Virus record (IMG/VR): IMGVR_UViG_2721755727_000004
DNA: 14,254 bases
Reading direction: 5' to 3' (one strand)
Source: a virus
Taxonomy: Duplodnaviria; Heunggongvirae; Uroviricota; Caudoviricetes
Part shown: positions 3,981 to 4,990 of the stretch, piece after piece
Layout of the letters: every line of letters begins with the position of its first letter
How positions within the stretch are numbered: the first letter of the stretch is position 1
The notes under the pieces: model-generated
Told to the model about the DNA's origin: nothing
Databases searched by the model: none
The model's input: the letters and a program-made list of their open reading frames with translations, nothing else
Made by a program: the position numbers and the translations under genes

Positions 3981-4534
3981 TGCATAAAGCAATATTAAAT
4001 AGTGACTTATTGCAACAAAGGCAGGGGATGTTACCGTTTAAACTACGATGGTGAACACGGGAATATATTTCCACTTCAATGATATCTTGCCGTGGTGTCG
4101 GCATTCGGCATGTTCCTGTTTAGATGCCCTGGTACACATAAGGCTGGTTATGCAATCGCCGTCTGCAGATTTTAACTCATGGGATATGTGCCAGACCATC
4201 GCGGTGAAACGGTCTATAGCACCAAACTGGAGAATCAAAGAAATCAAAGCTCCGGGTGTTTACCCTGAATCAACCACTATCGGCCCCTTTATCTCATCGA
4301 TAATGGATGTGAGAAATGGTGCCGATACTGAACCAGCGCATAGCGCGCAGTGACGCGGCAGGCACAGCGCCAGTCACTGATGTGCTGCAATGGCCCCATT
4401 TCTGATTCAACTTGAATGAGGCGGACGTAAACTGATGCAGGCGAAATCAACCGCACGCTGTGCTGGATTTCATTGACGCGTGCGGCAAAGTACCGCACCC
4501 GCCGGATGTCATCTGGCCTAACTGCCGAGCGTAG
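3980..4534 (+). pseudogene. tfaE: Tail-fibre assembly (Tfa-like) gene remnant, multiply frameshifted; the track's 101-aa ORF 4048-4353 lies inside
   Basis: ATG at 3980 overlaps the stfE stop (TGATG); Tfa-like segments in shifting frames (FNSWD / VPDHRGETVYS, AAKYR, C-terminal PPDVIWP at 4499-4519, stop 4532-4534). Confidence 0.45.
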
Positions 4535-4990
4535 GCCATTCAATATCTGGCGCACTGGATGATCAACCAGTTCCAGTGCTTCCAGATAATCCAGCCACAA
4601 ATTATATTGTTTCAGTCATCTTCTTTAGTCTTCCCATGCAGCTTACCTGCCACTGTCTGCTATTGATAAATCAGTTGCATAGAGATAAGCATCTGCTTTT
4701 GAAAGTTCGCATCTGCGACTTCATCATCATGAGTACGGATAACCTCTTTATAGAAGGAGGAAAACAGAAAAATCGATCACGCCTCCTTCAGCTTGAGATT
4801 TTATAATGACTGCCAGTGTTCTGCCGTTATTTCTTTAGATCTGCGAATGACGCCACAGCCATCCATAAAAAAAAAACGTATTTAGCAACAGTATATTTCA
4901 TCTTAATACCCATAGATCCATTATAGTATCCTCCGTTGACTGCCACCGTAATAAAAACGAGTGGTTGTATATCCCCCCGTTGCCACTCAT
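4518..4990 (-). pseudogene. tfaP: Tail-fibre assembly (Tfa-like) gene remnant, convergent with the plus-strand one; the track's 103-aa ORF 4289-4600 lies inside
   Basis: ATG at 4990 overlaps the stfP stop (ATGA); the only long frame reads NLWLDYLEALELVDHP, the Tfa motif APDIEWP (4533-4553) is in a different frame, stop at 4518-4520. Confidence 0.4.

Follow-up and report, generated by a model that had tools for sequence, protein, structure and literature searches.

The stretch of DNA analysed here (14,254 nt; hereafter the window) is the cryptic prophage e14 of Escherichia coli K-12, and the two peptide motifs considered below are the C-termini of its tail-fibre assembly genes tfaE and tfaP, which lie in the invertible P segment. 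In a megablast comparison with 5426 complete E. coli genomes, positions 3400-5600 match K-12 strains, and the features annotated under the match are ycfK, tfaE, tfaP, a 'phage tail protein' and ymfQ. K-12 strains with annotated tfaE and tfaP are collinear with the window; in strain C600 the order is ycgX, iraM, an icd fragment, mcrA, pinE, stfE (entered as 'phage tail protein'), tfaE (plus strand), tfaP (minus strand), ycfK (minus strand) and ymfQ, and further on xisE, intE and lit. A partial isocitrate dehydrogenase gene at 1531-1698 (minus strand), also annotated in C600, is the icd duplication, a marker of the e14 attachment site (PMC11148124).

Gene content and layout of the P segment

The gene for the serine DNA invertase, pinE, adjoins the P segment at 2869-3423 (minus strand) and is identical to its counterpart in C600 (5470-6024 of the C600 locus, L001). 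The mechanically called reading frame for this gene is longer, beginning with an ATG at 3459 (2869-3459, minus strand; 196 aa) instead of the annotated start at 3423 (184 aa), and would reach into the 5' end of stfE (3453) on the opposite strand. The latter, a silent alternative fibre cassette at 3453-3980 (plus strand), was placed by the annotation of L001 6054-6590 and by tblastn with StfE (E = 5e-55), and its frame is broken from 3673 onward. Immediately behind it lies the tail-fibre assembly gene tfaE (3980-4534, plus strand), located by alignment to L001 6590-7192 and by tblastn. Facing this pair on the minus strand are the expressed fibre gene ycfK, also called stfP (4903-5448; L001 7579-8208 by annotation, tblastn E = 1e-69), and the second assembly gene, tfaP (4509-4901), which was likewise located by tblastn and by alignment to L001 7164-7577, and which measures 414 nt in K-12.

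An inverted-repeat search recovered two 21-nt arms that bracket these four genes, are 95% complementary and match the arms in K-12: the left Pin crossover site, AAACGTTGGTTTGGGAGAAGG, at 3485-3505, which also agrees with published repeats (PMC12529663), and the right one, CCTTCTCCCAAACCAAGGTTT, at 5144-5164. The arms stand 1797 nt apart in K-12 versus 1638 nt in the window. Both sites fall inside fibre genes, as is usual for switches driven by a serine invertase encoded next door. The stfE/tfaE and tfaP/ycfK pairs point towards each other, and the start of ycfK (5448) and its constant 5' part lie outside the segment while its variable part lies inside, which is the arrangement of an inversion switch.

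In K-12, PinE, a serine invertase, flips the 1797-bp segment that two 21-nt inverted crossover sites delimit, and PinQ and PinR can act on the segment in trans. Inversion decides which of two variable 3' cassettes is joined to the constant 5' part of ycfK/stfP. That the two tfa genes converge in the middle of the segment follows from each cassette carrying its own Tfa chaperone gene behind it. All three invertases, PinE, PinQ and PinR, have been reported to flip the e14 segment (PMC12529663).

The tfa junction and its C-terminal motifs

The motifs, strands and stop codons named in the original prediction are all recovered by translation at the positions given there. On the plus strand, PPDVIWP is encoded at 4499-4519 ahead of a TAG stop at 4532-4534, the tail of this frame being HPPDVIWPNCRA; translation of 4400-4534 ends in ACGKVPHPPDVIWPNCRA, followed by the stop. 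On the minus strand, APDIEWP is encoded at 4533-4553 ahead of a stop at 4518-4520, and translation of 4518-4700 gives the tail SSSAPDIEWPTLGS. From stop to stop, the two frames share 4518-4534, or 17 nt. A regular-expression search for PD[IV].WP across all six translated frames of the 14,254-nt window returned exactly two matches, both at the tfa junction, and since the mean over 300 shuffles was 0.003 matches, the pair is not a product of chance. The idea that two short peptides arose fortuitously on opposite strands draws on nothing beyond the brevity of the motif (7 aa), and we reject it, as the shuffle expectation, tblastn and the alignment of the DNA to tfaE and tfaP all contradict it.

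Intact copies of both genes are annotated in C600, where tfaE encodes 200 aa and tfaP 137 aa, and they belong to the Pfam family Caudo_TAP (PF02413): K-12 TfaE scores 113.7 bits (E = 8.7e-33) and TfaP 71 bits (E = 1.3e-19) against a cut-off of 22.1. The match of e14 TfaP covers only positions 58-130 of the 131-position profile, its N-terminal part being shorter or different. In the window, neither the mechanical reading frames nor the six X-masked frames of 3980-4990 gave a Pfam match at the gathering score, the cause being a frame break roughly once per 10 codons. A profile search was the check proposed with the original prediction, and its outcome, no match in any frame, formally speaks against membership; the homology itself stands on tblastn and on DNA alignment. 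With K-12 TfaE as query, tblastn recovered fragments in all three plus frames with E values down to 5e-14, and with K-12 TfaP it recovered fragments in three minus frames (E = 1e-25); at the DNA level, the window carries the K-12 sequence minus deletions. We therefore do not count the missing Pfam matches as evidence against Tfa identity, as these two lines show genes that are split between frames.

The name 'tail fiber assembly protein' is borne by 3478 homologues in a large homologue search. PD[IVL]xWP occurs within the last 30 residues of 100 of 120 close TfaE homologues, although these best 120 of the homologue list are all at least 87% identical and say little about motif diversity, for which a phage collection supplied a diverse set. 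The tail VDTS(T/S)APD(I/V)xWP is common to lambda Tfa (VDTSTAPDIEWPAVPVME) and to both Tfa proteins of the phages pro483 and SKA5, and these tails bear out the statement that PD(I/V)xWP is a characteristic Tfa C-terminal motif. The conserved tail is present on both strands of the window, and each tfa gene lies directly downstream of a fibre gene (stfE then tfaE, ycfK then tfaP), as is typical of the family. The proposal that two Tfa genes converge here, one for each fibre variant, is thus upheld by homology and by the K-12 annotation. A sequence search of solved structures returned no match to TfaE at E values up to 1, so that sequence offers no link to a known structure.

A chaperone mechanism for Tfa proteins comes from studies of Mu Tfa and Pam3 gp25 (PMC9608196). 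The proteins are described as modular: their N-terminal domain, which is variable, attaches to the fibre, and their conserved helical domain at the C-terminus drives trimerisation (North et al., 2019, as cited in PMC9608196). The VDTS(T/S)APD(I/V)xWP tail forms the end of this conserved module, and TfaE and TfaP are predicted to act as chaperones of their cognate fibres.

In detail, the junction in the window departs from that in K-12. C600 TfaE ends in VTATDTSTAPDVIWPELPEA and TfaP in LVDTSSAPDIEWPTPPAVQAR, and the K-12 reference tails are TSTAPDVIWPELPEA for tfaE and TSSAPDIEWPTPPAVQAR for tfaP, with a tail-to-tail overlap of 29 nt (TCATCTGGCCTGAACTGCCGGAGGCGTAG). This true overlap maps to 4509-4534 of the window and measures 26 nt there, as DNA alignment shows 3 of the 29 bases to be absent. 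The true stop of tfaE is the plus-strand TAG at 4532-4534, and that of tfaP maps to 4509-4511; the minus frame runs into an early TAG because of the 3 bases deleted inside the overlap, and the 17-nt span (4518-4534) falls within the true one. A single deleted base likewise accounts for the double proline of PPDVIWP (APDVIWP in K-12), GCG CCG (A-P) having become C CCG. Both the 17-nt overlap and the first proline are therefore peculiar to the window copy, and the tfaE gene is shorter than in K-12 (555 versus 603 nt) owing to one-base deletions.

The convergent and partly overlapping tfaE/tfaP pair, the Pin invertase, the P segment and the Tfa C-terminal motif are all known already. The tfaE and tfaP genes of the e14 P segment feature in PMC11148124 and PMC12529663, and in Plasterk and van de Putte (1985) as cited in PMC4272514. 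Two intact phages, the P2-like pro483 and SKA5, have the same order of invertase, fibre cassette, plus-strand tfa, minus-strand tfa and fibre gene. Like e14 of K-12, they carry two intact tfa genes with an identical 29-nt overlap and identical or nearly identical C-terminal tails; unlike e14, they are functional phages with complete fibre genes, and their minus-strand Tfa proteins measure 146-147 aa, compared with 137 aa for e14 TfaP (window 4509-4901, minus strand; L001 7164-7577). The dual-coding overlap is 100% identical at L001 7164-7192 in e14, L006 3075-3103 in pro483 and L007 3069-3097 in SKA5, and the last ~30 residues of both chaperones are the same, or nearly so, across all three. 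Judged from the sequences, this comparison suggests that the central part of the invertible cassette may move between phages as a unit. The C segment of P1 (Cin; U and U') follows the same logic as e14, with an invertase of the serine family, short inverted sites, and variable fibre parts and chaperones arranged as two convergent sets, but its chaperone genes stand 34 nt apart without overlap, and the U and U' tails retain only a degenerate WP motif. Inversion of the Mu G segment by Gin works in the same way, on two convergent sets that each pair a variable fibre part with a Tfa-family chaperone.

Departures from K-12 inside the P segment

The window and the e14 prophage of K-12 represent the same locus, with the same 21-nt sites, gene order and C-terminal tails, and with flanks that are 100% identical, and they differ in that the window copy lacks 166 scattered bases of the segment. 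Positions 1-3505 and 5144-14254 (12,616 nt) show no difference from C600 whatsoever. Within the segment, 166 bases are deleted, 7 inserted and 10 substituted relative to C600, and all 183 differences lie in an error-dense zone at 3673-5144. One-base deletions make up 91% of these differences, and 1621 of the 1638 segment bases form a subsequence of the K-12 segment, which amounts to the K-12 sequence minus scattered single bases. Through the absence of 166 bases, each of the four genes that reach into the segment has a broken frame, every frame in 3673-5144 being interrupted, and the tfa overlap is 17 nt instead of 29 nt.

The deletions favour homopolymers, their rate rising from 6.8% for single bases to 20% in runs of two, 22% in runs of three and 47% in runs of four. 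They are also unevenly distributed: the first 167 nt past the left crossover site (3506-3672) are free of errors, error density reaches 25-37 per 100 nt beside the right site (4900-5144), and a second peak lies at ~4290-4500. None of the 5426 complete E. coli genomes matches the window version of the junction (4440-4620) at 99% or better, and the exact window junction was not found among GTDB species-representative genomes. The K-12 version of the junction is matched at 99% or better by 275 records, and is covered to 80% or more in 2034 genomes.

A milder form of the same defect is present in four RefSeq K-12-type assemblies that are classed as 'complete' (NZ_CP040643.1, NZ_CP017100.1, NZ_CP042867.1 and NZ_CP053607.1). 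Relative to C600, one-base deletions number 1 in BE104, 23 in NEB 5-alpha, 6 in ATCC BAA-196 and 7 in NEB5-alpha F'Iq; every one of them falls within the P segment, the ~3.5 kb of flanks compared being free of deletions. As a result of these deletions, NCBI labels the affected genes among stfE, tfaE, tfaP and ycfK as 'frameshifted' pseudogenes. Deleted positions common to these assemblies and the window exceed chance expectation (for example, 7 of 23 versus 2.5 expected). All four RefSeq assemblies have lost a base from the same 7-base homopolymer, at L001 7767.

Origin of the broken frames

The original prediction read the two genes as remnants that once converged, whose ancestral frames could be reconstructed with the motif pair as an anchor, and gave their overlap as 17 nt. 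Comparison with K-12 does not support this reading, since tfaE and tfaP are intact there and the window departs from K-12 almost solely by one-base deletions, all of them between the Pin sites; the natural overlap is 29 nt, in K-12, pro483 and SKA5 alike. We consider it highly probable that the broken frames and the shortened overlap are an assembly artefact, the cause of the deletions being our inference. The deletions carry the signature of consensus error, because they are confined between the Pin sites and the 12.6 kb of flanks hold no difference at all; their spectrum is that of long-read errors, and the defect recurs in four RefSeq assemblies. We propose that a culture containing both orientations of the segment passed through long-read assembly and polishing, in which mis-aligned inverted reads would vote for gaps, so that a mixed consensus would lose bases, here about 166 of them, mostly one at a time. 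Both e14 orientations are known to coexist in clonal MG1655 cultures (PMC4272514), and the 1797-bp segment is inverted in ~30% of wild-type cells (PMC12529663). A precedent is provided by the PacBio assembly of EC958, in which 20 indels and 2 substitutions fall at an invertible fibre segment covered by ~50% of reads in each orientation (PMC4134206). The indel cluster of the EC958 prophage Phi1 is confined to the invertible fibre segment (PMC4134206), like that of the window, but the window holds ~8 times more errors, and the mixed orientation of EC958 was seen in reads, whereas the window is a single consensus sequence.

Several features sit less comfortably with an artefact. Around 45% of the positions deleted from the window lie outside homopolymers, and the load of 166 deletions compares with 1-23 in the four RefSeq cases. 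The uneven spread of errors between left and right is not what a simple mixed-orientation model would give and also counts against this reading. Nor did an orientation-blend test yield a usable inverted signal: over the whole segment, the flipped K-12 sequence shared a longest common subsequence of 1157 of 1638 bases with the window, only slightly more than shuffles (1100-1113), and at the right end it scored 126 of 150, where shuffles reached 108-117 and the forward orientation 144.

The main competing explanations concern real decay of the genes, or errors that have nothing to do with inversion. Genuine pseudogenisation, in which stfE, tfaE, tfaP and ycfK would have decayed by many frameshifts in the source strain, agrees with the interruption of every frame in 3673-5144, with the lack of a Pfam match in any frame, and with the nature of e14 as a defective prophage with other truncated genes. 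Natural decay would, however, consist mostly of substitutions, while 91% of the changes here are homopolymer-biased one-base deletions; it would not be expected to stop at recombination sites, nor to spare all 12,616 flanking bases, which include other dispensable prophage genes. Given further that the differences are common to no other genome among the 5426 complete E. coli genomes, and that the same defect recurs in milder form in independent assemblies, we regard decay in the source strain as very improbable. Slightly less remote, yet still improbable, is an error zone that arose independently of inversion, for example through a local coverage drop, a patch from an unpolished read or deliberate corruption, and fell in the P segment by accident. 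The homopolymer-biased deletions show a raw long-read profile and not its cause, and the clean 167 nt on the left mean that the zone does not exactly fill the segment. Against such an accident, the zone stops at the base beside the right crossover site and keeps entirely to a 1.64-kb segment of a 14.3-kb window, where a randomly placed zone of this size would fit ~1% of the time by our estimate; errors in four other assemblies are likewise restricted to the P segment, and the mechanism has a published precedent (PMC4134206). Very improbable too, and the least probable of these readings, is that the ~166 deletions are real and that the source is a K-12 derivative with the P segment alone riddled by frameshifts; were this so, it would imply a mutagenic process tied to Pin-mediated strand exchange or to the repair of DNA undergoing inversion.

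The tfaE/tfaP junction adds nothing new to the biology of e14, and the remaining value of the finding is a warning about sequence quality. Dense indels at the invertible segments of long-read assemblies can mimic pseudogenes, and should be treated as a quality flag. Where 'decay' or 'ancestral frames' are suspected at invertible loci, comparison with a clean reference should come first.
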